The notes under the pieces are model-generated. The model had not been told where the DNA came from. It saw only the letters and a program-made list of their open reading frames with translations, and did not search any database. From Hydrolagus colliei (taxonomy: Eukaryota): a stretch of DNA of 64,000 nucleotides. The translations under genes were made by a program, and so were the position numbers. This document shows, piece by piece, positions 7,281-63,630 of the stretch; positions within the stretch are counted from its first letter, which is position 1; every line of letters begins with the position of its first letter. The stretch spans positions 142,476,001 through 142,540,000 of the forward strand of contig CM068742.1 of the NCBI GenBank assembly GCA_035084275.1, written 5' to 3'.

Positions 7281-7440
7281 ATAATAATCCTTTATCTGAT
7301 ATAGCACCTTATCACATCTTAAAGCACTTCACAGAATATACTGTAAAGTGAATTGACTATATTTTGTGGGCAAAACGCGGCAGCCAATTGTGCACAGCAG
7401 TGTCCCATAACCAGTCGTCGAATGAAGTGACCAAGTGATT
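7281..7440 (-). mobile_element. 5'-truncated SINE, same family
   Basis: Core plus tail. Confidence 0.75.
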
Positions 7441-8269
7441 GAAGTAGCTGGACAAGCAACGGGAAAGCTTGATAGACAGCAATATAAATGGCAAGCTATG
7501 CTGTTTCAGTAGGTTAGACTCCAGCAGTATCCCCAACATATACTCAGGGGTCAGCGGGAAGTGTCCCTCACGAGAAAGGTGTGCATTCCATTCCAACAAT
7601 CGATCTCTGGAATTTCCATGTGTAGATGGGAGGCATGGAATTCCCAGTTTGGTTTGGGGAATCTGAAGCATGGTGATGGGTTTCCAAAAGTAGAAATCCA
7701 TTGTCATGCTTAATCACATATCAATACTAACTAACCACACATGAAAATTTTCCTGAATCTGGATCAGAACACTGGAAAGACAGTTTGGCAAGAGTAAGTG
7801 TTGGGATCTGCTGTAGATTAACCAGCTAAACTGGCAGAGCCTGCCATTGAGAGCACCATCTTCCCACTGCTTGCCCACCAGGACTAAGCACTCTGGAAAG
7901 CTTCCCTTGTGAAGGACACTATATAAAGATGAGTTGTTGTTGTTTTTGACAACCCTACCCTTTCAGGCTTTGCCCTTACCAAATTAACAGGAGCTGAGTG
8001 GTAGGAATCCTTGCTCCCAGTAATTGGTCTGCCCCTCCACATCCAGCCAAAAAGCCACGTTCACTGCTCTCTCATCCACAGTGCGTTTGCACTGTGCCGG
8101 ATGATGACTCTGGAAAACGTTTTTGGTAATTCTTGGAGAAGAGTTTGGGAAACTTCTTACAGAATAAACAAGGACCATTTTTCTGCAAGGCATTTGCTGC
8201 TCATTACCAGGAATCTGTAAAGTTGACCACCACCCAACTCACCTCTATTTCTGCCACCAATGGAAAAAA

Positions 8270-10465
8270 TCTCCTCCTCCACCCCCCACCACCCCGCACA
8301 CCCTCTCAGGTGCCTTAGAGTCATCTGAACTCATCCCCAATGACCTATCCCCCTTGATAAGTCTCCCCCACAACTCTCTCTCCACTATTCTCGATGCCCT
8401 TACTCCTCTCATTTCCAGAACCGCCTCCTAATGACGGTCGACACGCTGGTACACCAGCCACCTCTGCTCCCTCAAGGTACAAGTGAGTGCCACTGAACAC
8501 ACCTGGATTAAATCGAATTTAACAGTCCATCAGAGGATCTGGCTGGACCTTATCAAATCTTACTATTCTCTCCTCACCTCCACTAAATCGTCCTACTCTC
8601 TGACAATCTTGGAGGCTAGGGACAACCTCAGGCTTCTCCATCACCAATGGGTTTCTCCTCCCACTCTCTCATGCCTCACCCATTCTCTCCTCCAAAGCCA
8701 ACTGCAATGAGATATTGGACTTTCTCAAACCAAAGTCAAGGGGAACTGCTTAGCTGCTTCTGCCCTTCCATCAACTATCCCCTCGCTAGCTCCCCCTCAC
8801 ATCCGGCGCCTACCCATCCCTCCCTCCACACCTTCAAAACATGTTTCCCCCTCTCTCACCACCACTATAACCAGCATGAAACCTCAGTCCTGATGAAGTG
8901 TTGTAGACCCGAAACGTTGACTCCTTTTCCTTTCTCCGTGGATGCTGTTTGACTTGCTGAGTTTCCCTAGCAACTTTTATTTTTGTTTCAGATTCCCAGC
9001 ATCTAAAGTATTTTGTGTTTTGCTTAAATTACCTCTCCATTTCTAACTTCCCCTTCCTTTTCAAGGTCCTGGAAGGGATAATTGCTTTCCAGCTTCGCTC
9101 CTTCCTCTCATGCCACTCGCTTCACAAATCCCTCCCATCAGGTTTCCATTCCACCCTCAGCACAGAAACAGCTTTGGTCAAAGTGACAAATTATAATTTG
9201 TCCATCTGCGACCAGGGCTCCCTCTGACTCCTCGTTCACCTTAATCTTTCTGCTATCTTCAATACCATTGACCATTCTATCCTTCACCACTGCCTTTCCT
9301 CTCACACCGTTTCAGATCCTACCTCTCACAACATTTCCACTTCATCCCCACAAATGATTTTGCCCCCAGCCCCCACACTGTCTTGTGTGGTGTTCCTCAG
9401 GGCTCTCCTCTTCTTCAATATCTACATGTTCCTCTTGGTGACATCATACGCAGACATGGGGTTGAGTTCCACATCTTTGTAGATGACATGTATCTCTACC
9501 TTTCTGCTTCCACCCTCAACTCCAGGACCACTGCTATCCTTACAGAATGTCTCTGAGACATCAAGTACTGGATTAGAGCTAACTTTCTACAGTTGAACTT
9601 CAACAAGACCGATGCCCTTCTGGTTCCTGTCAGCATCTCCACACCTCAGGCACTGACAGCATCACCACCCAAGGATGCACATTCCACTTTACTGAGGCAG
9701 TCCAGAAACTTGGCATCTTATTTGACCCTCAACTGCCTTCATACTTCACATCAGTGCCACGATCTACTCCGTCTTTCCCCACCTCCTCAACATCGCTCAG
9801 CTCCGCCACTCTCTCACGCTGCCGAGTCCCTCATACGCTCATTGCTTTGAGACGTCTAGAAGACGTGAAAAGTGCTGCATCAAATGCAATGATTATTATT
9901 ATTATTATTAGTTATAACATTCAGGTTCAACTTTGCAAACGGTATGCCCGCCAGCCTCCCCAACTCCTCCCTCTACAGCCTACAGATCATCCAGAACTCT
10001 GCAGCCTGTGCCCTGCACCAGGCTCCGCAACCCCATCATCCCCATCCTTGCCTGACTCCACTAACTTCCCATCAAACAGAGGATAAAGTTCAAGATCCTG
10101 GTCACCTTCAAAGCCCTCCATGGCCTTGCTTCTCACTACCTCTGTGACCTTGTAACACCCTACCAACCTGCTTGCTCCCTCTGCTCAGTGGGCAAAGGCC
10201 TGCTTCATGTTCTCTGCCTCACCTATCACACTATTGGTGGTTGGGCCTTCAGCCACTTTGCCCCCACCCTCTGAAATTCCATCCCGCAGTCCCTTCGCCT
10301 CACCACCTTCCTTGCCTCCTTCAAGATCATGCCTTTGATCACACTGCTTCCCCTCACCCTCCATCTTCTCCGATCTCGACTCCCAGCTCCTGGCCGAAAC
10401 ACTGATTGTGCAGCACCATGGGATGTCCTCCCGATGTGAAAGGTGCTATACAAATGTAATTTTGT
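8270..10465 (+). mobile_element. Degraded L2-clade LINE (RT region to 3' tail) with nested insertions
   Basis: RT remnants STETALVKVT, GVPQGS, HIFVDD; L2 tail at ~10410-10465. Confidence 0.8.
8860..9022 (+). mobile_element. Penelope-like terminal fragment with degenerate hammerhead core, nested in the L2
   Basis: CTGATGA...GACCCGAAACGTTGAC then TTTCTCCGTGGATGCTG; related copy on minus at ~40765-40860. Confidence 0.55.
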
Positions 10466-10570: not shown

Positions 10571-11635
10571 TGGTATGTTGTTGTAGGTGAACAGAGAGTG
10601 AGCGACAGAGAGAAAGGGAGGAAATGAGAAAGAGAGAGAGAGGGAGACACATACACACACACACATAGAGAAGCAGGAGGCACACATGCATGCAGAAAGA
10701 GGTAGAGAGGCAGAGACCTTAATGTCCAGAGAGGGAAAAGCACTGTGAAAATATATTCTGGTTAATAGTCCACTTTCAGGTAGTAGTAATTCTAAAACTA
10801 TTCTCCACAGGAGTAGAATAAAACATCGTCAAACTAGCAATTTCCATAGCATGAGACCATTGCAAAAGCAGCAGCTGTAGATAATAAGGTTCATAACCTG
10901 CAACGTCGGTAACTAATGTCCCACTTAAATACTGTATTTAACAATTTCATTATTTCCATATGTCTATGGGAAGGACACATCAGTCACCATGAAACCATAC
11001 AGATTAATGTTGCAGGGTTGATTCCTGCGCAGTGTTAGCTCCTCTCAGGCCTGGGCAGTCATTGGAACATGACAATTGTTCTCAGTATTAACGGGTCAAA
11101 CAGCCAGGATTCCTGCTGTGTAAATGGTGCACGATGGCAGGAAAAGCACCTTGGAAAATAAAATGTGTGAGCCTGTCTCTCTCTTTCTCTGTCGATGGAC
11201 TTACTTGACAATTAAGCATTGTTTTCAATACCATTATATTTTAAAAGTATGTTTCAGTGATTTATAAATTGCTGAAGTGAACAACTCCAAAATCTCCAAT
11301 GAAATCCTAGCAATTTAGCATTACTGGATGACCACATTGATGGTGGTAGGGCTTAATTTTCCTTACAGTACAGCTATATGAAAATTGAAGTTAAACTCAC
11401 TGACAAATGTCTGCCTTTTGCCTTTGATTAGACAAAAAGAATCAATAAATCATAATAAAATAATCCTTGAATTTGAATGTGGAGAGAGTGCAGGTGCTAT
11501 CCTGCACTCTCTCCACCTCGCCTGGCGATAGATGATATTTTATATTTGATATCATCTATTTAATCTAATATTTGATCTAATAGTAATATTAGATATATAG
11601 TGATTTTTTTTTCACACGGACAACCCGCTCCCGAG

Positions 11636-11800
11636 GCTAGAGATCTTCGGGCTGGAACGATCGCGGGGACAGAGCTTTCACGCTGTGCACCGCTCAGCCC
11701 ACCAGCTGGAGCCGGCTTCCATCGCTGCCGGTTCTTCCTCTATGGGCAGTCGGCCAACGAATACCATCTTTTTGGGACGACGGGGAGGATCACGGAGGGA
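11636..11800 (+). pseudogene. PEBP-family (PEBP4-like) coding fragment
   Basis: [36 protein letters not shown] resembles recalled PEBP4 [36 protein letters not shown] (GxHRY motif degraded). Confidence 0.75.
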
Positions 11801-11938
11801 ATGGCGGCCACTCGCTGTCGGCGCTTCCTCCGGCTGTGCGAAGAGTGGCCCCTCGACAGGACCTGGGTAGGCCGCGACCTCGGCACTTTCCTCAGGCAGC
11901 GGGTGGCGCACGTCTTCCGCGAGGGGGAGAGCGCCCAG
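11801..11938 (+). pseudogene. UQCC2: UQCC2 (MNF1) N-terminal 46-codon fragment
   Basis: [46 protein letters not shown] vs recalled human [46 protein letters not shown]; no other UQCC2 exons found. Confidence 0.9.
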
Positions 11939-11945
11939 GTGCTGC

Positions 11946-12058
11946 AAGCGACGGATCATCTCGCGGGAGATCCAGACGGCGATCGGGCTGCTGCTGCTGC
12001 TGCTGTGCGAGCTGGCCAGACACACCGTGTCCGAGGTGCCAGGGCCATCACAGAGTCC
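11946..12058 (+). pseudogene. Histone H2B C-terminal fragment, frameshifted, with (CTG)6 expansion
   Basis: [38 protein letters not shown] vs H2B [37 protein letters not shown]. Confidence 0.88.
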
Positions 12059-12869
12059 CCAGGTTCACCGACTGAGGAGCCGGTCGGTTTGGGGGCCTGA
12101 CACCACACTGGGCCCTTTTTTCCGCGCCCTTTTTTTCCCGCCATCTCAGGGATCGTCCGGGCGGGCGGCGAGGACAGGGAGTGGTTGCTGGACGATTGTT
12201 GGTTATTGTTTGTTGCTGTTTTTGTTGTTAATATTATTGCTTTTGTTGTTTATTATTGTTTATTATTGTTGTTTGATTCCCCCCACCCCTGCCCCCATTT
12301 TCTTCTTCCCTCACTCCCTTTCCCCACTTTCTCTCCTCCCTTTTCCCCTTCCCTCCCTCTTCCCTCTTCCTGATCTTGCCCCCTCCCATCTTTCCCTCCC
12401 TCTCTTCCTTGCCCCTCTTTCTCCCCCCTCTTCCTCCCTAACCCTAACCCACCCCACCTTTCCCTCCCTCTCCCCCCTTACCCTCTTTTCCCCCTTTCTC
12501 CCCTGGCCCCATTTTCGCGATTGTTTGTGGGGACACTGCTGTGCGCAATTTGGCTGCCGCGTTTCGCCCACAAATATACAGTCGACTTTCCTGCCATTTT
12601 TCCCCCTGCCTCGACCCCTCCCCTTTTGCTTCTTTAGCCCCTTTTGCCCCTAGTCCCACTTCCGTGACTGATTGTGGGACACTGCTGTGCGCAATTTGGC
12701 TGCCATGTTTCGCCCACTAATACAGTTACTTTTCCTACTATGCTTTATCCTGCCCTGATCCTTCCCACCCTGTTCTTGTCCTACCTGACTGTACAGCGCC
12801 TTGGGATGTCCTCTCGACGTGAAAGGCGCTATATAAATGTAAGTTTTGTTGTTGTTGTTGTTGTTGTTG

Positions 12870-13140
12870 ATATAGCACTTTTTAGATCTGCTAGACATCT
12901 CAAAGCGTTTCACAGAATATACTGTAAAGTAGATTGACCATATATTTGTGGGAAAAACGCGGCAGCCAATTGTCCACAGCAGTGTCCCAACAACAGTTAT
13001 GGATGGAAGTGACCAATTTTCTTATTTGTTTTTCTTGAGGAATTATTATCAGGCGTGTGGAATAAGAAGGTTTCTCCCTACTGGGAATCAAACCTAGGTC
13101 TTCCGCGTGCAAGGTGAGTGCTCTAACCACTGAGCTACAA
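12870..13140 (-). mobile_element. tRNA-derived L2-tailed SINE; its tail end is displaced to 11452-11476 by the insertion
   Basis: Head GTAGCTCAGTGGTTAGAGCAC, core GGGACACTGCTGTG..., same family as 45488-45792. Confidence 0.85.
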
Positions 13141-14167
13141 TAAAAGCTACTATATTAATATAGAATAAAAATTGGAACAGAATCATTCAAAACATTTTGC
13201 AGAATCATTTGGAATAGTTTATATGACCGAGTTTGTATTCTGATTGAATTATGTTCTTGATTAATCTATATTAAGAAATAATATTATCAAATTTATTATT
13301 GTACAAACATACTGTACAAACATTCCTAACATAATTTCTGCTGCATCAGCTTACTGATTTTGAGACTGCATATTCTTTTACAATAATTAAAGCAATGGTA
13401 TTAATACTTGTCTTCCTTATACTGTATATAGTCACATTTAAAAAAACTTTACCAAGTATTTTTGCTAATATTATCATCTGCAACAAGAGACACAAAAACA
13501 ATGAGGCACAAACACAATATAACCTGATGAGTACTCAATTATCCTACCTGTGGTATTAGTCTATAGAATATTCATTCTAAGGATATATTTTGCAGCAATT
13601 ACCACTCAGTGTAGTTTGCCTACCGATTTACTGTATTTTTCTCAAATTAATATTCATAGAAGGTACCTCTCAGAATCAGGTTATTTGGCTCATCCAATCC
13701 CACCAGTGTTTATACTCCACACAAATGCACGAGAAGTGCCAAGAGAAATTATAAAGATAATTCATTGATGGAGCAGCTGCATCTATCAGGCAGCAATGAT
13801 CGTTTTCCTTATCAGACAAATAATAACTTTGTACCCAAGACTTCTGAAACCATAGAAGATCTCAAACTGAAAAAAGAGAGAATATAACTGAATAAAAATC
13901 CCTTTCTTTTGTTCCGTGCAGTTGGACATCTACTGCGACTGGGACTAATAAGCTGTGGAGACTTCTGTGAAAGAACCACAAACCACAGGACAGAACATCT
14001 AAACTACTGGCTGACAATACAAGCACCACCTCAGCCACCAGAACTGCAGATGCAGACAGATTAGGTAATAGAGCTAGCTGCACTTCTAATCTGCACCATT
14101 AACTAAGACACCGGACAGCTCCACCAGACAAATCTAAACACAGAGACATAAACAGTATCATACTTAC

Positions 14168-21987: not shown

Positions 21988-22480
21988 AATAATCCTTGCA
22001 TTTGATATGCCTATCATATTGTTGAGACATCTGAAAGCACTTCACAGAATATACTGTAAAGTGAACTGACTGTATATATTGTTAGCGAAATGCAATAGCA
22101 AATTGCACACAACAGTGCCCACAAAGTGTCATGGACTGAGTGACAAAAGTATTACATGTATTTTATTTTAACAAAATTGAGACATTATTAACCTAAAAAA
22201 AATGATCTGTCAATTGATTCATAACTGGGCTCCCACTTACCGCTAGGTAAATAGAAGCATGTAGAGTGAAGAAACGTGGCTAAGGTTTTGGCCTGCTGAG
22301 TCCTCTTGCTTGTGAGGTAAGTTCTCTAACCGCTATGCTCAAGGATTCCAGTTGTACAAAAGCATATTTCACCCACAAATATACAGTCAACTAACTTTAC
22401 AGTATATTCTGTGAAGTGCTTTGAGACGTCTAGAAGATGTGATCAGTGCTATATCATATGCAAAGATTATTATTATTATT
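21988..22480. mobile_element. Two oppositely oriented SINE fragments (minus ~21988-22145, plus ~22255-22480)
   Basis: Shared CACAGAATATACTGTAAAGT motif in inverted orientation. Confidence 0.75.
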
Positions 22481-27689: not shown

Positions 27690-28410
27690 GAATACAAAAT
27701 TTAATTTGTAAAACGCCGTTCTCTCTCCGCCCTGCTCAGTCCCTAATCCCTGGGATGTCAGGAGGACATCCCAGGGATTAGGGACTGAGCAGGGCGGAGA
27801 GGATTGGGACCTGGGAGGGTGGAGGGCAGAGAGGATAGGATGGTGGCCAAAGGCATAGTCGAAGAGGATGGTCTACAGGTATGCCCTGAAGGAGGTAAGG
27901 GAGGGACCGAGGTGAAGGGAATGTACGATGGAGTTCCAGAGAGTGGGGGCAGAGATGCTGAAGGCCTGATTGCTGATGGTGGGGCAGGTTGGGTGGGGCA
28001 GGTTGGGTGGGGGACATGGAGCAGGCCACAGCCTGCTGAGTGCAGAGAACTTACAGGTTGATAGCAAGTCAGAAAGGAAGAAGGGGGCAAGGCCATCAAG
28101 GGCCTTGAAGGTGAGGATGAGAATTTGGAACTCAAACCTCTGAGGAATCGGGAGCCAATAGAGCCAGATAAGGATGGGTATAATGGGGGTACCAGAACCT
28201 AGTTCAGGAGAGGGCACAAGTTCTGGATGATCTGCAGCTTGTGGAGGGAAGAGTTGGGAAGACCGACAAGCAGGGAGTGGTGGAGTCGGGCAATGTTGCA
28301 TAGGTGAGGGAAGGCAGAGCAGGTCATGGCATGGATGTGGACGGAAAGGACACTTGAGGGTTGAATGGGATGCCTAGGTTCCTGATTGGCTTGGTGAGGT
28401 GAATGTGCAT
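27690..28410 (-). mobile_element. L2 LINE 3' fragment with foldback in the tail
   Basis: WLPIPQRFEFQILILTFKAL motif. Confidence 0.82.
27723..27801. repeat. Perfect 37-bp inverted repeat, 5-nt loop
   Basis: CTCTCCGCCC...GGGATGTC aggag GACATCCC...GGGCGGAGAG. Confidence 0.95.
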
Positions 28411-33520: not shown

Positions 33521-33656
33521 CCACTTTGCTGGGACAAATTGGCGATGGTTTGTGTCATCAATGGAGTAATTTTCATTGATTGAAAAAAAATTGAAAAAAC
33601 CTTGGGAAAGTTTCCTTACTCCACATGCCTGAAAATAAACCTTCAAGAAAAACCCA

Positions 33657-33830
33657 ATGGTAAATTGGTCATTTCAATCCACGACTGTTCGTGGGACACT
33701 GCTGTGTGCAATTGGCTGCCGCGTTTCGTCCACAAATATACAGTCTATTAACTTTGCAGTACATTCTGTGAAGTACTTTGAGATGTCTAGAAGATGTGAA
33801 AAGCAATGTCCCAAATGCAAGGATTATTAT
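33657..33830 (+). mobile_element. 5'-truncated SINE, same family
   Basis: Core plus tail. Confidence 0.8.
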
Positions 33831-34017
33831 AGCAATGTCCTCAAACCCAGATTATTATAGCAATGTCCTCAAACCCAGATTATTATAGCAATGTCCTCAA
33901 ACCCAGATTATTATAGCAATGTCCTCAAACCCAGATTATTATAGCAATGTCCTCAAACCCAGATTATTATAGCAATGTCCTCAAACCCAGATTATTATAG
34001 CAATGTCCTCAAACCCA
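33822..34017 (+). repeat. Minisatellite, 7 perfect copies of 28-bp GATTATTATAGCAATGTCCTCAAACCCA
   Basis: Directly visible 28-bp period. Confidence 0.95.
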
Positions 34018-35683
34018 GAAGAAGCCAGATGAATCGACAATTTTGATTTAACTACTTCTTCCAGTGGATACATCAGTGAAAAGGATTGCCCAAGAGACAG
34101 CGGAGGCAGATTGTATTACCAATTACAAAAGGGAATAGATGTGTCCATACTGATGGCAGAGAATTTGTGGGGAGAAAGAAATAGCGAAGAACAACAACAA
34201 CAAAATTACATTTATAGAACGCCTTTCACATCGGTAGGATGTCCCAAATGGTAATGATGTTTTACAAACATGTACACTCCTGTGTTTTTAAGCTATGTCA
34301 TGTCTAGAAATGCTGTCCAAAGCAAATCGTCGGGTTTTATTCTTGCAGTTTTTAATACCTGTTACAAATACACAGTTGGTCCTACTTTACAATATATCCT
34401 GTGAAGGGCATTGAGATTTCTCATTGGTGTGATAAGGCACTATATAAAAGCAAGAATGATTAATATTCAGTGAGCAATATAATGCAATTTTTTATCCCAA
34501 AAATCAAACCACACTCAATGGCAAAGTGATCATTTTTCAAAATGGCTAAAGTGTTAATGTTAAATGGAACTGAATTCAGTTATGACAGACTACAATGAGA
34601 ACAGGTGGCTTTCGTACAGGATAATATCTTTTGACATTTACAGAATAACCGCCTATCAAATACAATTAAAATTCTTTACATCTGTCAGAATCATAATTGA
34701 AATCAACAAACCAAAAGATTTCTAAACTGAAACTCTCTCTCTGGAGGCGAGGCATTTAAGGGGCTTTGAAAATTATGAAAAGTTTAATAAGGTGGACATA
34801 CATATGCTGTTTCCACTTGTTGGTGTGTCTACAACAAGCGGGATTAAATCTAAAATAGCCAGTAGAAATCCTAAAAGAGATTAGGAGGAACTTTTTTTTT
34901 CACAAAGGATGGAAAGAATTGAGAACTCACTGAGAGAACTTGTGATTGAAGGAGAATGCATTCATCTATTTAAGAGGAAACTCAATGTATACACAAGGGA
35001 GAAGAGATTCCTCTGGAGTATAAACACAGGTTTAGCCTATGTTGGGCTAAATAGTCTGTTTTTTATGTTGTAGAGTCTCTGTAATTCCATTTAAGTCGCA
35101 GCCAAGATGTTACAAGCTGGAGAACTGCAAAAAAGAAAAACTAATGGGGCATAACCTAAAGGTAGCCTTTGGCTTCAAGGTCCAGAGACATTTGATAACT
35201 ACTATTCTCCTCTTCTATGCAACAGCTAACACCAGATATATATTTAATTAAATGAAACTCTGCTTTAGCAGATGTGTGGGGCGGAGGGGAGGTTAAGAAG
35301 ACTCGATTCATTTGCCATATTTGCCAACTAGAACTTGCAATTCATCATGAATTACAATTTCTGGTTTGCAAAACTTCGGGCTCACGAATCCCAAACTAAA
35401 ATCCATACAATGATGGAGAAGAAACAGTCAAGGGATTCACAATTTGTGCACCATGAATCTCACAAACTGGATTACATAACAAACTCAACATATTCAGTTT
35501 GTGAATAACACAAATTAGCCCCCACCCAGGATACTACAGATAGACAGAATTCAAGAATCTTTCAAAGTATCATTGTTATTTCACACTTCAGCCAGGTGTG
35601 CTCAGTGACTAGGTGCTGGACTGACAGAATCATTCACCTATTTTTTTTTAAAAGCAACATTTATTCCATGTTCAAATTGTTTA

Positions 35684-44204: not shown

Positions 44205-44303
44205 CCATCACCATGTTTCCAAACCATCCCATGCATACCATCTACATATGCGATTCCCATATGTAGATGGGATGCATGGGATGGTTTGGAAACATGGTGA
44301 TGG
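44205..44303. repeat. 46-bp inverted repeat (1 mismatch), 7-nt loop
   Basis: CCATCACCATG...CTACATATG cgattcc CATATGTAG...CATGGTGATGG. Confidence 0.93.
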
Positions 44304-45450: not shown

Positions 45451-45487
45451 CTGAAAGAAAAAAAAATTCAATTTGCCTTGTTTTAAG

Positions 45488-45792
45488 AATAATAATCTTT
45501 TCGTTTGATATAGCGCTTTTCATGTCTTCTAAACATCTCAAACCACTTCACAGAATATACTGTAAAGTGAATTGACTGTATATTTGTGGGCGAAACACAG
45601 TAGCCAATTGCGCACAGCAGTGTCCCACAAACAGTCGTGGACTGAAATGACCAATTTATTATTGTTTTTAATCGAGGGAATTATTAGGCATTTGGGGTAA
45701 GGAAACTCGCCCAAGGTTTTGCCCTGCCTGGAATTAAACCCAAGTCTCTCGCTTGCAAGGTCAGTGCTCTAACCACTGAGCTATAGGACTCC
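45488..45792 (-). mobile_element. Full-length tRNA-derived SINE with conserved core and L2-type (ATT)n tail
   Basis: A/B-box-like head, core GGGACACTGCTGTGCGCAATTGGCT, tail GCGCTATATCAAA...ATTATT. Confidence 0.88.
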
Positions 45793-46280
45793 AAGTGTCT
45801 AACTAAGTGTCCTACTGACACTTTCAGCAATGTATAATTTATCACACAACACAGAACAAACAAAGCTCAAAACAAAGTTTTAACTTTTACATACACTTCA
45901 TTCCCAGTTAAACAACAAAAAAAATTGCAACATGCATCTAAATAGTCATTCATTTAAATGTATTATATATTCTATGCTATTCACAGTGTCCATTCTATAT
46001 CCATTGAGAAAATTAATTATTCTGTGAAAGACTTAATTCACACCAATACTCATATCCATTCCAGATGTTTTAATTCTGTCTTTTTTTTTAACATTGCATG
46101 ATTTTGGAGTAGCCATTTGCAAAACCTAATTACAACTATATTTAAAAACAGTATTTACAAATTGTTTATTTTCTAACATTAAAAAAGAGTTTGCCAAGAT
46201 GCAAAGAGTAAAGGTCTGAAACAGTAGTGGCTAACCTGTAGCCCGTGGACTGGAGGTGGAAAATAAATGTTATCTTTTTA

Positions 46281-46544: not shown

Positions 46545-46878
46545 GATAAGTTCCCCTGGTAGGAGAATCTATATCCAGGGATCAAAATCTTAATATTAGG
46601 GTCAGCCTTTTAGAACAGAGTTGAGGAAACATTTCTTCACTCAGAGGGTAGTGAATTTATGGAATTCACTACCCCAGAAGGCTGTAGATGCTCAGTCGTT
46701 GAACATTTTCAAGGCTAAGACTGATAGATTTTTAAAAATATAGAGGGATTAGGGGATATGGGGATAGCGCACGTAATTAGAGTTGGGTCAGAAGATCAAC
46801 CATGATCTTATCAAATGGCTGGGCAGGCTTGAGGGGTCAAATGGCATACTCCTGCTCCTAATTCTTATGTTCTTATGA
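46545..46878 (+). mobile_element. CR1-clade LINE 3' end
   Basis: FFTQRVVNLWNSLPQKAV motif; tail CTCCTGCTCCTAATTCTTATGTTCTTATG. Confidence 0.85.
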
Positions 46879-49308: not shown

Positions 49309-50340
49309 CTGCAGACAAGATTGAACACCACACTTTAGTATCTAAAAGGTTTTACTGCACCAAAGTTCTCAGTATTGTCAGTTTCTTTTTCACCACGCTC
49401 ATTAATGTGGCAGTGACAATAAATATGTCTTAGTCTCTATAAATACTGGTCACATAAATGGTGCCAATGTAATGAAAACTAAAGTACCAAGATACTATTT
49501 GATAGATCTCACAGAGGAAAACAAGTCACTAAAATAGGAGGGAATTGAAAGCATAGTCAGAAAAACAGGTCTTTAGTTAGGCTTGGAAGGAATGAAGATA
49601 ATAATAATCATAATCCTTGCATTTGATATAGAGCTTTTCACGTCTACTAAATGTCATAAAGTGCTTCACAGAATATACTGTAAAGTGAATTGACTGTATA
49701 TTTGTGGTCGAAGATAGGGGTAAAAGTGGGAGAAATCTGGCAAGGAGATCCAGAGAGTGAGGCAGAAAGGCTGAAAGCTCACCCTCTGAAGGTGAAGCAG
49801 GCCAATGTTTGTTGAGCGGAAGGAGCAGTCTTGGCAGTAAGGTTGCAGATCGCAGAGATAGGGCGGGGATGAATAAATAAACTTTTAAAATCCTTCTCTA
49901 TAAGTTTCCCATTTGGTGTCAAGAGGGTATCTGAAAGCACGTCTCAGGATTTACTATAAAGTTTAGTGTCTAGTCTGCTCTAACAGAAACAGGGTCATGC
50001 AGCTGAGGGAGGCCACTGAATATGGATATTTAAGCGTAACATTTGTCAACATTCCTGAAATCTAACACCGAAGAATGTCAGACTGTGTTAGTGTTATGTA
50101 ATACGTTAAATTGAAAAACACGATCTTTCTGTGCCAGAGAGCATTTTGTGCCACGTGAGTCATGGACTGGAAGCATCCACCAGTTCCATGACATTTGTGA
50201 GGTTGTAGCATATATTTGTGTTTCTGTAGTAATTGATTTCTAAGTTCCAAGATTTTAATGATAATAGTGAAAACCCTGAGCAGGAGGCTTCACATAATGC
50301 AAACAGCCTGAATAAAATGAAACTGATGACAGATGAGTTG

Positions 50341-50675
50341 AATAATAATAATCCTTGCATTTGATATAGCGTTTTTCACCTCTTATCGACGTCTCAAAGC
50401 ACTTCACAGAATATACTGTAAAGTCAACTGACTGTATATTTGTGGGCGAAACGCAAAAGCCAATTGCGCACAGCAGTGTCCCACAAACAGTCGTGGATTG
50501 AAATGACAAATTTTATTATTGTGGTTTATTTTTGGAGGGATTATTATTAGGTGTGAGTAGTAAGTGTGTGGAGTAATTAAGTGTGTGGAGTAAGAAAACT
50601 TGCCCATGGTTTCTGCCTGGATTCCAACACAGGTCTCACACTTATACGCGAGTGCTCTAACCACTAAGCTTCAGC
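50341..50675 (-). mobile_element. Full-length SINE, same family
   Basis: Near-identical core and tail to 45488-45792. Confidence 0.85.
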
Positions 50676-51060
50676 ACTATATGAAACCACATAAATTTGT
50701 CCTTATAGTCACCCAGACTGAATAAATATTTGCAACAAACAAGAAAATATTATGCACTTAAAATGATGTTTGTGTATGGATAATGTCTCATCCACAAATA
50801 TAATTGTTCTGCACTTGTGGTGTAAATTGTAATGTTAAGGCATTGAGTGTGATACTTGTTTTATTTATATGGTGTACAGATTTTGTCCCTTGCAAGTGGC
50901 ATAACTATTCTAACTGGAGCATTAACGTAAAAGGAGAAAATGATGTGGATACAGTATTTTGAGACTTCATTTGAAATGACTGAAATCTTAGTGCATCGGT
51001 GATTAAGATCCCTAACATTTTCTAGTTTATTAAAAAAACAGATAATATGGACTTAATGAT

Positions 51061-51440
51061 AACAATAATAATCCTTGCATTTGATACAGCGCTTTTCACA
51101 TCTTATCAACGTCTCAAAGGGTTTCACGCAATATACTGTAAAGTGAATTGACTGTATATTTGTGGGCGAAATGCAGCAGCCAATTGCGCTAAGCAGTGTC
51201 CCACAAACTTTCGTGGATTAAAAATGACCAATTTTATTATTGTGTTTTTTGGGGATGCATTATTATTAGGCAGGTGGAGAAAGGAAACTTACCAAAGGTT
51301 TCGCCCTGACTGCCCAGATTCGAACACAGGTCTCATGCTTGTAAGGCGTAGTTTAGTACTGCATATAGCGCTTTATCACATCTTCGAGACATGTCAAAGC
51401 GCCTCACAGAATATAGTGTAAAGTGAATTGACTATATTTC
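51061..51440 (-). mobile_element. SINE copy plus adjacent SINE 3' fragment
   Basis: Same core and tail motifs. Confidence 0.8.
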
Positions 51441-58339: not shown

Positions 58340-59324
58340 CTGTAAAACACAAAAAGTATTCAGATTTGCGACATCACCATGCATATGCACAGGAAGCATT
58401 GCTGCAGTCACTGCTTTTGTGAAGTGACATCAGCAATGCTTTCTGCAGCTAGCATGTACACATCAAATGGGATGATATCAGCATTCATCCAGTGCATTGT
58501 GTGCACACGCAAATTGACATGTGTCAACCTGACAACCTGTAAATTGGTCATTTGTTAAGTATGGGGGTATGCTAGTCAGCACCAGAAGCAGATTGGACCG
58601 CACCTCCAGTAAGCACAGACCCATACTCTTATGCAAACCCAGACTCTACCAGGACATTCTAACAGTGTTGCTCTGGAATCATAAAAGACATGGACTCTTA
58701 AGCAAAAAAGTTGCACCGATAAATCCTTCTCTTTGTGCAATCCTTACTAATGGACTTAAACCTCAGAGGTCAGGCTTCTCCACACAGCAGGATAAGCTGA
58801 TATGGTACATTACCTCAACTTTCCCTAAGGGAGTATTTGAGAGATTGTGGTTGAGTGTGTGGTGATCCAAACACTCAACCTTCAAGCAACTTAGTGCACA
58901 TCAAAAAACCTTGAAAAGATTCCCTGAGTACACGTATGCATGTGGAGGTAGATTATGTTGGAGTGGAGTTCCCATGGTTTAGCACTTTGGTACCTGACGA
59001 AGCTCTCAATTAAGGAATCGCATGAAGAAATAACTCAACACTTTGAATCTGTAGCTGTCTGCCAGGAGTCGCAACCTCCACCATGCATCACAAAAGAGTT
59101 ATACAGTACAGACAATGGGTCTGTACTGTATAACAATTAACCTTTCAAATAGATTAGCTGAAAATAAACTACACTTTTGCAAATAACATATTCCAGAATA
59201 GTAATAAATACACAAAGCAGAGAATGAACAGAGCTAATGCATGCAGTGTTGCACTAACAGTTGCACATAAGAAATAGACCAAACAAGACAAGCAGCAGAT
59301 TTATGTAAAAAACCACAATAATAA

Positions 59325-59500
59325 AATTGGTCATTTCAATCCACAACTGTTTGTGGGAACACTGCTGTGCGCAATTGGCTGTCGTGTTTCGCCCACAAAT
59401 ATACAGTTAATTCACTTTACAATATATACTATGAAGCACTTTGAGACGTCGATAAAATGTGAAAAGCGCTATATTCAAATGCAAGGATTATTATTATAAT
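59325..59500 (+). mobile_element. 5'-truncated SINE, same family
   Basis: Core plus AAATGCAAGGATTATTATT tail. Confidence 0.8.
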
Positions 59501-59509
59501 AACCACATC

Positions 59510-59935
59510 ATATCAAGGCCCTCATTTTCAAGGCCCTCAATGGCCTTGCCCCTTCCTACCTCTGTGACCTGCTAACCCCATATCAACCTGTCTGCTCCCT
59601 CCAATCAGCAGGCTGTGGCCTGCTTCATATCACAGACCTCCAGACCGGAATGGCACGATACAAATGTAATCTACCGTCGGCCTCAAGAACTGCTACAGTC
59701 TAGCTCTGGTTCACTGTTTTCCCTAATTATTCTTCACAGTTGCCTGGATTTGAGAAAAACAGGCTTCAAGATATTGGTCTTGAAGCCTCCTTCAAGACCA
59801 ATATCTTTGACTGTGCCTCTGACTACCCTCCTACCCTCCCTGTCCCCCAACCTCTCTGATCCCAATCACCCCCCACAACTGCCCTGTGCCTTGGGACTTC
59901 CTCCAGACCTGAACGGCACTATACAAATGTAATCT
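59510..59935 (+). mobile_element. L2 3' fragment with internal duplication
   Basis: FKALNGLAPSYLCDLL-like sequence and tail. Confidence 0.7.
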
Positions 59936-60533
59936 ATCGTCGGCCTCAAGAACTGCTATAGTCTAGTTCTGGTTCACTGTTTTCCCTAATTATTCTTCAC
60001 AGTTGCCTGGATTTGAGAAAAACAAACTGCTCCTGTCACACACCATTCAATAGATAAGAAATGTGTTTTCCACGCTTATTGTTTCTTGTGTCATTCTAGA
60101 ATAAATTAAACGCATTTGATTTCTGATGCCTGTTGTTCATAACTATAACAGTGGTCAATCCATTCGAACATTGTGGTTAGGCCAATCCTGCCATTGATGA
60201 TAATAATAATAATCTTTGCATTTAACATTGTGCCTTATGTGCCTATTGAGACGACTCAAAGCACTTCACAGGATTTGAAAAGTGGAGTGACAGATTATTA
60301 GTTAAAATTGGGTGATAACAGTTTCTTGCTGGAAGCTGGAAGGATATTATACATAACTCAAAAAGGTGGCCATAATTGTTTATCCTTGCAAATCTCGAAT
60401 TTCATCCCATAGGATTCACTGCTCTGCAAGAATACAGACAGAAATAGTCCAACAAAACAAAATTGCTATTTAGTCAATAGATTTGATACACTTATTTGTG
60501 TGATTTGCTCTCATCAAAAAAGGAATGACTTAC

Positions 60534-60577: not shown

Positions 60578-63335
60578 CTAGTGTTTCACAAAAATGAGCG
60601 AACGAAAAATAAATAAGTTATTTACAAATCAGAACAAAATGACACAATATTCAGGATGTCAATGCATTTATAATACAAAACAGGTCATGGTGTTACAATA
60701 TTCTGTTTCCATATGTATTTGATACACAAATTTCTCACAAATTGTGGCAAATAATCACAGAGACAATACAAAACAGGCAGAGGAATTAATTTTAAATAGA
60801 ATTTCATCCATATCACTGGAGATTAAAGGGTTATTCAGTCACTGGATCTTTCCATTGATAAATGGATATATTTCAGAAAGAAATAAAACATGTTAATGAC
60901 ACCTTAAATCTACATTATTTAACGTTACAGCAGAAAGAAATTCTAAAGAAAAACGTGCCCTTTTGCACGGCAATAGATGAAAAACGCAATTGAAGATATT
61001 ATTATGGGCAATGTTATTGTATTGATATTAGAAGAAGTATTCGTTATTTTAGGTATTACATCATTGCTGAAAGCAAAGCCCTGAATACCTGTAACCTGTG
61101 ATTTGCATTTCCCAACAACTGGCCATAATCTCTGCCTCATCATGAACTGCACAAGACCACTGGCAACAACTCTCAACAGCTATCAAAGTCTCATTGCTCC
61201 AGAAGGAACATTTCCCATTACAGAATCAAATTGTTTTTAAATAAGTCTAATGTGTTGACTGATACCACTCTCCCTGGTAACTCTAGCCACATTTTCATGA
61301 CTCTGTGTTAAGATATACTTCCTGATGCCTGTCCTAAATTTACCTTTAATAATCCTGTCTGGTGCTTTCTTGTCCAGCTGTGCAGTACATCTGTTCATGG
61401 TTTATTTTATATATCTCATTTATCATCTTATATAGCTCAATACGGTTCCCTCTGAAACATCTCTTTTCAAGGCTGAGAGCCCATCTTATCTTGTTATTCC
61501 TCAAAACATATTCCTCATACACTTGAGAGTTTTTGTGTTCTGAATCTCCCTTGGGTAACGTAAATGTTAAGCAATAAAAATCGGAGATCTGTACCTGACA
61601 AAAATATTTATGTGGCCAAGTCCTTCATCTCCCACAAACGTAAGCACTGCACATTAGTGATAATCTTTGTGCACTTAGCAACAATGCCAGGCTGCAGCTG
61701 GTGAAATGCTGAAGAAATAATTGTACAACGCCACCAGTGGGAATGGACTTCCTACCTTCTCTCTCCCTACTCTACCTGAGCCTTGTTGGGCAAATCCCTA
61801 CCAACAATACAGGCAGAGAAAATAGTAATTTTTTTTCAGCTTCTATATCAGCCTGATGAAGCAGCTTTAGCGTGAAATCTAAAATCAAATCACAGGTTAT
61901 ATGAAACAGCTTCAACTCGAGCACTTAGAAATCACCCACTTACATAAGTGTTCCGAAAAACAAGCACTTTCTGAGCACTTTCAATCAACGTACAACAAAC
62001 TCATTGATACATCTCAAACACTGGAAAAATCCTGGACTTTTGCACAATGTAATGAGTGATGTCAGTGAGCAATGCAGTGACAAAATGACATGCAAGACAA
62101 CGGCAATGTATAACATGTGTATGTTTAATGCAAATACACCAACAAGAAATAGTTTAACCTGTCCATCTGCTGTACACCCTTCTGAAAAGAGAGAGCAAGG
62201 GAAAAGATTATTAGTGCAGATAATATCTTTCTTGTATTACACATTATTATTGGAATATTCCAAGTATTCTGCAATATTTTAATTGCTTCCCTTTTTAAAA
62301 CCATTTTATTCTACTCCTTCCTCCCGGCAGGTGGATGGATGAATGTTCCAATCCAACCCATTTTCCAAGATTATTAATAAGTACTTCAATTATGTTGACT
62401 GCCACTTCCATTCTTCTGAACACTTAATTAGATTTGATATCCATGAGAAAAGTTAATCAGATTTTCCACACTGAAATCGGGTAGCCATGTTTCAGTTTCA
62501 AACATATTAACACACACTCATTTCTTTACGACACACCATGAATTAGTTTTGTTTTGCTTCAAATAAATAAAACAAATGTTGCAATGACATTTTAGCTCCA
62601 CGAAACAAAAGATGATATTTCAACAAACTTTATAAACTGGACATCTTTTCCAATTAATATGTAAATAAATGCCAAAAGAACACCCACACACTGCTTCACT
62701 GCTATAGAATTGCTCATCAAAATGAATTTCAAACCAAGCTATTAGTAGGTTTTAATCAGATAATACATGAAGGACTTTGAGGTCAATGTTGTCTCACATA
62801 GAAATGTACGGTAAGCACGAGGCAACTAAAAACCCAGAGGCCATTTCCCAGTTATTTGTAGGGACAGGGAGCAGTGCATCTATACCGAGCAAATATATTC
62901 TATGTTTTCATAAAGTGGCAAAAACAATAGCTGCAATACTCTGACTCTCATCTTATGTTTCAACTTGAAGATGAACACTACTTTTTTTAAAAAATCCTTA
63001 ATTACATTGTGCCTTACAATTTATTTTGATTTAATTTGTGACTAAGCAATGCTACAACACATCCCAGTGAAGTCTCATACAGATTGTACTCTTTCCGCCA
63101 ATTCTGTTTCAGCTCTATATTTGACCAGCAAGTTTACAAATACACTATAATGCACCAGTTATATACTGCGGAATTAGTGACAGCTGCATACAATTCATTA
63201 AAAGCAGAGATCACTATTCAAGTATCTATGTTTATTCTATGTTCTTATTTAATTATCAAGATTCTAGCAATTTACAAATTTAGGAATAGCACATTGTAGC
63301 TCCAAGAGTATGTCACGGAATGAAAGGTTAATCAT

Positions 63336-63630
63336 GGAGCTCAGTGGTTAATGCACTCGCCTTGCAAGCGAGAGACCTGGGTTTAATTCTTGGCAGGGCA
63401 AAACCTGCAAGTTTCCTCATTCCTCAAACCTGATAACAATCCCTCAAAAAAAAATTGGCCATTTCAGTGCATGACTGTTTGTGGGACACTGCTGTGTGCA
63501 ATCGGCTGCCACATTTTATCCACAAATATAGTCAATTCACTTTACAGTATATTCTACGAATTTCTTTGAGATATCTAGAAGACATGAAAAGCGCTATAGC
63601 AAATACAAGGATTATTCATTATTTATTTAT
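63336..63630 (+). mobile_element. Full-length SINE, same family
   Basis: GCTCAGTGGTTAATGCACTCGCCTTGCAAGCGAGAGACCTGGGTTTAATTC head, core and tail. Confidence 0.87.

Follow-up and report, generated by a model that had tools for sequence, protein, structure and literature searches.

What brought pieces of three protein-coding genes together along one open frame inside an UNC13 intron of Hydrolagus colliei? An earlier note on the stretch of DNA analyzed here (64,000 nucleotides, the window) had described PEBP4-like, UQCC2 and histone H2B coding pieces following one another on the plus strand and had proposed that a UQCC2-headed chimeric peptide could be translated from the ATG at 11801. Our analysis indicates that this peptide is probably not the point and that the noteworthy object is a composite element with an L2-type tail. 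The unit that the earlier note missed is the whole insertion at 11477-12870, which carries the gene pieces stacked at its front.

The setting was defined by sequence matches to UNC13, the host gene, which has minus-strand exons at 18750-18605, 16444-16321, ~1795-1739 and 416-336. The exon at 18750-18605 matches Munc13 chains in the PDB with an E value of 1.7e-20, and the matches do not single out paralogue B. The element lies on the plus strand in the 14.5-kb intron between 16321 and ~1795, so that UNC13 exons stand on both sides of it and the antisense placement claimed for the locus holds.

The block at 11477-12870 is a single retro-insertion of 1.4 kb located in the tail of an older tRNA-SINE. 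The host SINE (12867-13144, minus strand) has a head at 13073-13144 that scores 33.4 bits against the Rfam tRNA model, above the gathering threshold, and its body domain differs from the consensus at 10 of 67 positions. Read from 13144 down to 12867, this SINE lacks its final 35 bases, and those bases are found at 11476-11440. In alignments to other SINE tails of the window, the minus-strand segment 11440-11476 (~35 nt, severed from the SINE body by the insertion) picks up the match to the tail ends where 12870-13144 breaks off. A 4-bp duplication, TTGA, flanks the block, with the left copy at 11473-11476 and the right copy at 12867-12870. With the host SINE split and TTGA present on both sides, all of the sequence between is one insertion. 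Note that TTGA overlaps the tail repeat, the alternative reading being microhomology at the 3' end. From 5' to 3', the insertion begins with hairpin filler and the three gene pieces, continues through low-complexity DNA and two SINE-body domains, and closes with a LINE stem-loop tail and a (TTG)8 microsatellite end; it carries at least five junctions. No second copy of 11470-12200 was found within the 64-kb window.

The 3' modules, all on the plus strand, link the element to the LINEs and SINEs around it. The first of them, at 12196-12472, is a degenerate (TTR)n that passes into a pyrimidine-rich tract; two telomere-like CCCTAA units lie within the tract at 12437-12450. An internal hairpin 5' of the (TTR)n, considered as an older tail, was unsupported (z -0.74). 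The next module is a 146-nt tandem duplication (12473-12766, the units 76% identical), each unit of which holds a tRNA-SINE body domain of ~67 nt (~12514-12583 and ~12661-12731). The first domain departs from the SINE consensus at only 3 of 67 positions and retains all CpGs, and the second departs at 7 of 65. The end of a LINE 3' UTR with an L2-type stem-loop tail follows (12749-12845), and the element closes with a perfect (TTG)8 terminus and the right TTGA copy (12846-12870).

The tail is of a type common to the LINE remnants of the window, where LINE bodies run on into it, and it differs at 5 of 57 positions from the consensus of 11 window tails. The consensus fold of nine copies has 14 pairs, four of which show compensatory changes, and the stem-loop is intact (z -2.94). 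Upstream, 9000-10465 is the decayed 3' half of a LINE ORF2 with the element's type of tail, interrupted near 9845-9910 by a SINE tail. This partner remnant matched RVT_1 weakly (E value 0.036, short of the cut-off); from ORF2 motifs we tentatively assign both the tail and the partner LINE to the L2 clade. The length of the TTGA duplication falls within the 3-5 bp range at which L2-clade target-site duplications peak according to the available part of PMC4245944, which also gives extra 5' nucleotides for about half of zebrafish ZfL2-2 copies. Since several LINEs require a cognate 3' end (PMC3747384, in the sections available), the mRNA pieces would ride on the LINE tail.

The window is also rich in SINEs of ~300 nt with a tRNA(Ala-like) head and a LINE-type tail (7290-7460, 12867-13144, 22000-22160, 33560-33830, 45480-45800, 50340-50600, 51060-51300, 59290-59500 and 63320-63630). 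Their body domains differ from the consensus at 3-12 of 65-67 positions, mostly through CpG decay, and the family was not matched to any named one. A 28-nt tandem array at 33802-34019 (7.8 copies, 97% matches) derives from the end of a SINE tail. ARAGORN returned no tRNA gene. The Rfam tRNA match lies within the host SINE only and oligo-T runs occur inside the element, so the inserted sequence does not have the Pol III head of a strict SINE.

Of the three gene pieces, codons 1-46 of UQCC2 can be assigned firmly from protein similarity, whereas support for H2B is modest. The UQCC2 piece (11801-11938, plus strand) was recognized by Pfam (UQCC2_CBP6, E 1.7e-8, above the cut-off) and by homologue alignment; it shares 40 of 46 residues with Callorhinchus, its closest named UQCC2 proteins come from one chimaera and two rays, and the GC3 of its frame is 0.89. 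The similarity ends at CAG|GT (11938/11939) directly after codon 46, and the ATG and the break are both as the earlier note described them. Residue 47 is Ile in 17 of 20 named UQCC2 homologues. That the break may be the native end of exon 1 had been suggested in the earlier note, and it was borne out by gene models: in Mola model P0013, Q46 is followed directly by residue 72, while Sinocyclocheilus model P0008 loses its resemblance to the family behind Q46 (with Val) and regains it at residue 72. As human UQCC2 exon 3 starts at c.214, which is codon 72 (PMC3873243, in the part available), these models place the end of UQCC2 exon 1 after codon 46. A random break would fall at the exon-1 end with a chance of ~1.3% for the UQCC2 junction, or 4% for any of three junctions.

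The H2B piece (11937-12075, plus strand) lies in the +1 frame; it has been lengthened by a CTG expansion and has lost 1 nt at ~12036. It matched 140 PDB sequences at E<=0.05, and the best 60 of these 140 all contain H2B; the best single-copy E values are about 0.005-0.015. Of 26 aligned residues, 18 are identical. The piece corresponds to the C-terminal helix, to which the CTG expansion adds two leucines, and its GC3 in the +1 frame is 0.94. Through a slip of one base at 12035-12037, G-A-R-A-I-T-E-S comes to be read in the main frame. We take this octapeptide to be the H2B C-terminus; the PDB alignments stop earlier, at V-S-E-G. The claim that H2B runs off the main frame until a 1-nt loss near 12035 is upheld in its location. 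The H2B parent may have been a divergent variant, which would inflate the apparent age of the piece.

H2B begins inside coding sequence, and its frame reaches back to 11934-11940 (HMMER, 8vlr row) with R-C-C-K-R read across the joint with UQCC2. Because the H2B frame extends back over the joint, the GT that follows codon 46 is not necessarily intron, and no intron sequence lies between UQCC2 exon 1 and the H2B piece. Two origins fit the joint: exon 1 may have been spliced to a cryptic acceptor within H2B coding sequence, or the template may have been switched at 4-6 nt of microhomology. The reading across the joint in the window is compatible with a candidate cryptic AG acceptor in H2B, and UQCC2 exon 1 was probably spliced onto such an acceptor.

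Beyond the H2B piece is a GC- and CpG-rich stretch (12076-12195, plus strand) that is possibly H2B 3' UTR plus a further piece; it gave no significant Rfam match and no histone stem-loop match. Within it, 12105-12130, ~30 nt after a TGA, bears what we take to be a resemblance to the histone 3' stem-loop, but as a degenerate stem-loop it was rejected owing to the lack of an Rfam match and its weak fold. A fourth gene piece, SGF29, in a minus frame at 11959-12192 was likewise set aside as chance: its E value of 0.0099 (PDB) came from two overlapping stretches and was not reproduced.

The identity of the upstream piece (11613-11800, plus strand, core 11627-11752) as a PEBP-family mRNA fragment is weak. 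PEBP-family proteins (PEBP1, mL38 and Tm16) make up 7 of 19 PDB matches at E values of 0.2-1.4, and one unnamed protein is 52% identical to open-frame residues 18-59 (E 2e-4, HMMER table row). Pfam, a word search (three candidates, no matches) and the ESM Atlas (no usable match) returned nothing for it. Further PDB matches, on viral glycoproteins and an ImpA protein, had E>=0.09 and were disregarded as chance. By eye, the PEBP similarity slips to the +1 frame near 11760 and likely runs on to ~11800. Alignment of bovine PEBP1 across this suspected slip is ~13 residues longer and gains only 1 bit, so the frame shift is weak. The subfamily name PEBP4 and the PEBP4 exon boundaries are presumed; a literature search for PEBP4 gene structure found no paper. 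Hence, of the claim that a PEBP4-like segment runs stop-free into the UQCC2 ATG at 11801, the open frame stands, with the family weakly matched and the name "PEBP4" presumed. The description of the pieces as exon-sized likewise holds for UQCC2 exon 1 and fails for H2B, which starts within coding sequence; the PEBP piece probably spans the presumed exon junctions, with the weak frame shift at ~11760.

Could the stop-free frame (11576-12100, 174 residues), in which the ATG at 11801 opens a 99-residue frame, encode a product? If so, the locus would be a new chimeric gene transcribed antisense to UNC13, with a selected UQCC2-headed peptide of 99 residues. The frame is open, the start context at 11801 is good, and the unmethylated-looking CpG island described below might serve as a promoter. 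However, the length of the open frame is expected by chance: when 11610-12100 was shuffled 3000 times by dinucleotides, 15.7% of the shuffles had a plus frame open over the full length and 23% had such a frame in any of the six. The parts of the frame that were not inherited from a parent gene were open in 75% and 32% of shuffles, and the block has further long frames, of 144 and 128 codons. We propose that the frame owes its length to descent from GC-rich coding sequence. Moreover, three UQCC2 residues that 20 of 20 named homologues share are radically changed (Y6C, K22W and T45A), and K23V accompanies them. The H2B piece is for the most part read in another frame, and an out-of-frame ATG at 11742, heading 42 codons, overlaps the 11801 start. 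No chimeric protein was present among 21 matches of 713 candidates, 22 matches of 85 candidates, or 90 HMMER matches (none with E<=1e-30). Eight UQCC2-type HMMER rows that extend past residue 129 (50-63% identity) score no higher than rows confined to exon 1 and were dismissed as chance extension. The block thus has neither an open frame above chance nor the conserved parental residues expected of a functional chimeric retrogene. A selected peptide seems unlikely on these grounds; they do not support the proposal of a peptide from 11801, and we regard a new gene as quite improbable.

The filler at the 5' junction of the element (11477-11612, plus strand) forms three stacked hairpins with perfect arms of 16, 11 and 10 bp, and its fold has a z of -8.87, which none of 200 shuffles reached. 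Perfect hairpins with arms of at least 12 bp number seven in the window and 0-1 in each of 20 shuffles. As such hairpins are common in the window they are not specific to the element, and we discarded the idea that they are element-specific ends. Apart from the hairpins themselves, no nearby template longer than 9 nt was found for the filler. Snap-back junctions have been described for R2 inserts (PMC11331408, in the part available), and together with the abundance of hairpins across the window this leads us to read the 5' hairpins as filler, probably made by fold-back synthesis at the 5' joining. The arm plus loop of the first hairpin (11481-11498) is alike at 15 of 18 bases to the UQCC2/H2B junction (11926-11943), probably by chance.

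Perfect or near-perfect fold-back hairpins with arms of 12-47 bp are seen at 27723-27801, 44205-44303, 46646-46674, 59098-59134 and 59768-59807, some of them at the ends of LINE remnants. A direct repeat of 125 nt (59637-59761 and 59900-60024, 95% identical) surrounds a hairpin with an 18-bp arm and a LINE tail. The window hairpins suggest either frequent snap-back synthesis in this genome or a signature of assembly. Perfect fold-backs can be library artefacts, and with several in the window an assembly or library chimera at our locus had to be weighed. Such a chimera is hardly credible, as the two flanks fit together into a single SINE tail with a 4-bp duplication, and substitutions and indels are numerous in the gene pieces.

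The strong hairpin at one end also recalls DNA-level capture by a Helitron or a Pack-type transposon, for which multi-gene fragments are typical in the partial accounts available, the LINE tail being merely adjacent. Against this explanation, the other end is a LINE tail plus microsatellite, and one duplication bounds the whole block. There are no terminal inverted repeats and by eye no CTRR end after the hairpin, UQCC2 exon 1 is not followed by intron sequence, and perfect hairpins are, as noted, common in the window. We consider DNA-level capture highly improbable. The LINE tail, the (TTG)8 and the 4-bp duplication instead favor RNA-based serial capture, as the earlier note had inferred.

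The 586-nt head has a CpG observed/expected ratio of 0.88, against 0.35 over the window as a whole and values of 0.21-0.51 for four LINE remnants, and it is the only CpG-island-like stretch in the 64 kb. The copy looks young: the (TTG)8 is perfect, the 16-bp stem is perfect and the first SINE domain differs at 3 of 67 positions, versus 10 of 67 for the interrupted SINE. Older signs are the H2B piece, with 18 of 26 residues identical and indels, and the internal duplication, which has drifted to 76%. A young copy that contains a drifted H2B piece and a drifted duplication suggests that the sequence changed in its source lineage prior to insertion. The divergence of the UQCC2 piece (6 changes) is close to that of the 3' modules (3/67, 7/65 and 5/57), so that a large share of it could have accumulated after insertion, provided that the block remained unmethylated. 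Each of the six changes inferred for UQCC2 is from A (6 of 22 A sites versus 0 of 17 T sites, p 0.027), and four of them sit within two adjacent codons. With these A-only changes, the source lineage may have undergone RNA editing or a strand-biased mutation process, although this is only a lead.

A rival explanation is a one-off chimeric retrocopy, in which an L2 reverse transcriptase would have started on a tailed RNA and jumped over H2B, UQCC2 and PEBP RNAs at microhomologies, the product then decaying in place and making no further moves. Only a single copy is present in the window, the UQCC2 piece and the 3' modules are similarly diverged, and the UQCC2/H2B junction could contain the 4-6 nt of microhomology required. 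Template jumps and multi-parent chimeras are known for LTR elements (PMC5131818, in the part available), as are "extra template" junctions (PMC11331408, in the available sections). But three or more simultaneous jumps would be needed, one of them exactly at the exon-1 end (a 1-4% chance), and this course leaves unexplained the drifted duplication, the more decayed H2B piece and the intact CpGs beside a perfect tail. A single event of this kind is conceivable but, in our judgment, unlikely.

The reading that we favor, with a probability of roughly 60%, is that 11477-12870 represents a composite non-autonomous retroposon in a copy truncated at the 5' end. The retroposon would have been mobilized by an L2 element via its tail, its head would have grown through successive captures at the 5' end, and its UQCC2 exon 1 would have been trapped by splicing. 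A matching L2-family reverse transcriptase would recognize the element RNA through the stem-loop tail and insert it using target-primed reverse transcription, with the hairpins at the 5' joint being filler made during joining. Less surely, the head may have been built stepwise in a source lineage transcribed by Pol II. The end of an H2B mRNA would have been joined first. A copy residing in UQCC2 intron 1 would then have trapped exon 1, the donor of which was spliced to a cryptic AG within the H2B piece, and a PEBP-family transcript would have been added last, either by splicing or by a template jump. More tentatively still, and on balance doubtfully, the copy may represent an active or recent family of L2-tailed composites that repeatedly trap exons at the 5' end, carry a CpG-island head free of methylation decay and seed islands into introns, which would make it an SVA-like vehicle for shuffling exons under the drive of a stringent-type LINE.

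The closest known parallel is human SVA_F1 (MAST2-SVA), which has MAST2 exon 1 at its 5' end, a joint ascribed to splicing at a cryptic site within the element (PMC12593883, in the part available). The present element, as we read it, is likewise a composite non-autonomous retroposon, with a host first exon joined exactly at the donor. However, SVA is mobilized by L1 and has a poly(A) tail, whereas here the end is an L2-type stem-loop plus (TTG)n, and no SVA modules are present. Also unlike SVA_F1, it stacks pieces of three coding genes and belongs to a cartilaginous-fish genome, and one copy is known, from a 64-kb window. SINEU of crocodilians and Sadhu of Arabidopsis have non-Pol III heads, 5' growth by template switching and internal oligo-T that argues against Pol III (PMC4494074, in the part available). 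Our element resembles them in that its head is not a Pol III gene, but SINEU heads are U1/U2 snRNA and not protein-coding mRNA fragments. The tRNA-SINEs of chondrichthyans (CmiSINEs and SacSINE1) have L2-derived tails and exchange 3' modules between families (PMC5499810, in its available sections). The element shares an L2-type tail with them and holds two body-domain copies of the window tRNA-SINE, but it lacks a tRNA head, is 1.4 kb long, and has a tail from a LINE subfamily different from that of the window SINE. LTR-mediated chimeric retrocopies and PIPSL also fuse pieces of several parent genes via RNA, as far as the available parts of PMC5131818 and PMC3747384 describe them; the former have LTRs, which are absent here, and in contrast to PIPSL there is no sign of a selected protein. 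The element works like SVA_F1 but is no SVA, no SINEU member and no strict SINE. Within the literature listings searched, which covered mostly open-access papers, neither the present element nor any L2-tailed multi-gene composite from cartilaginous fish is described.

Stringent LINEs copy only RNAs that carry their own tail, so genomes rich in such LINEs are not expected to retro-copy mRNAs freely. Here an insertion carries coding pieces of three genes on a LINE-type tail, and one of its joints coincides with a native splice donor. Annotators of related sequences should beware of false UQCC2, H2B and PEBP fragments. If the element belongs to a family, it would be a parallel to SVA_F1 outside the primates and would give sharks, rays or chimaeras a means of shuffling exons and of gaining new CpG islands.
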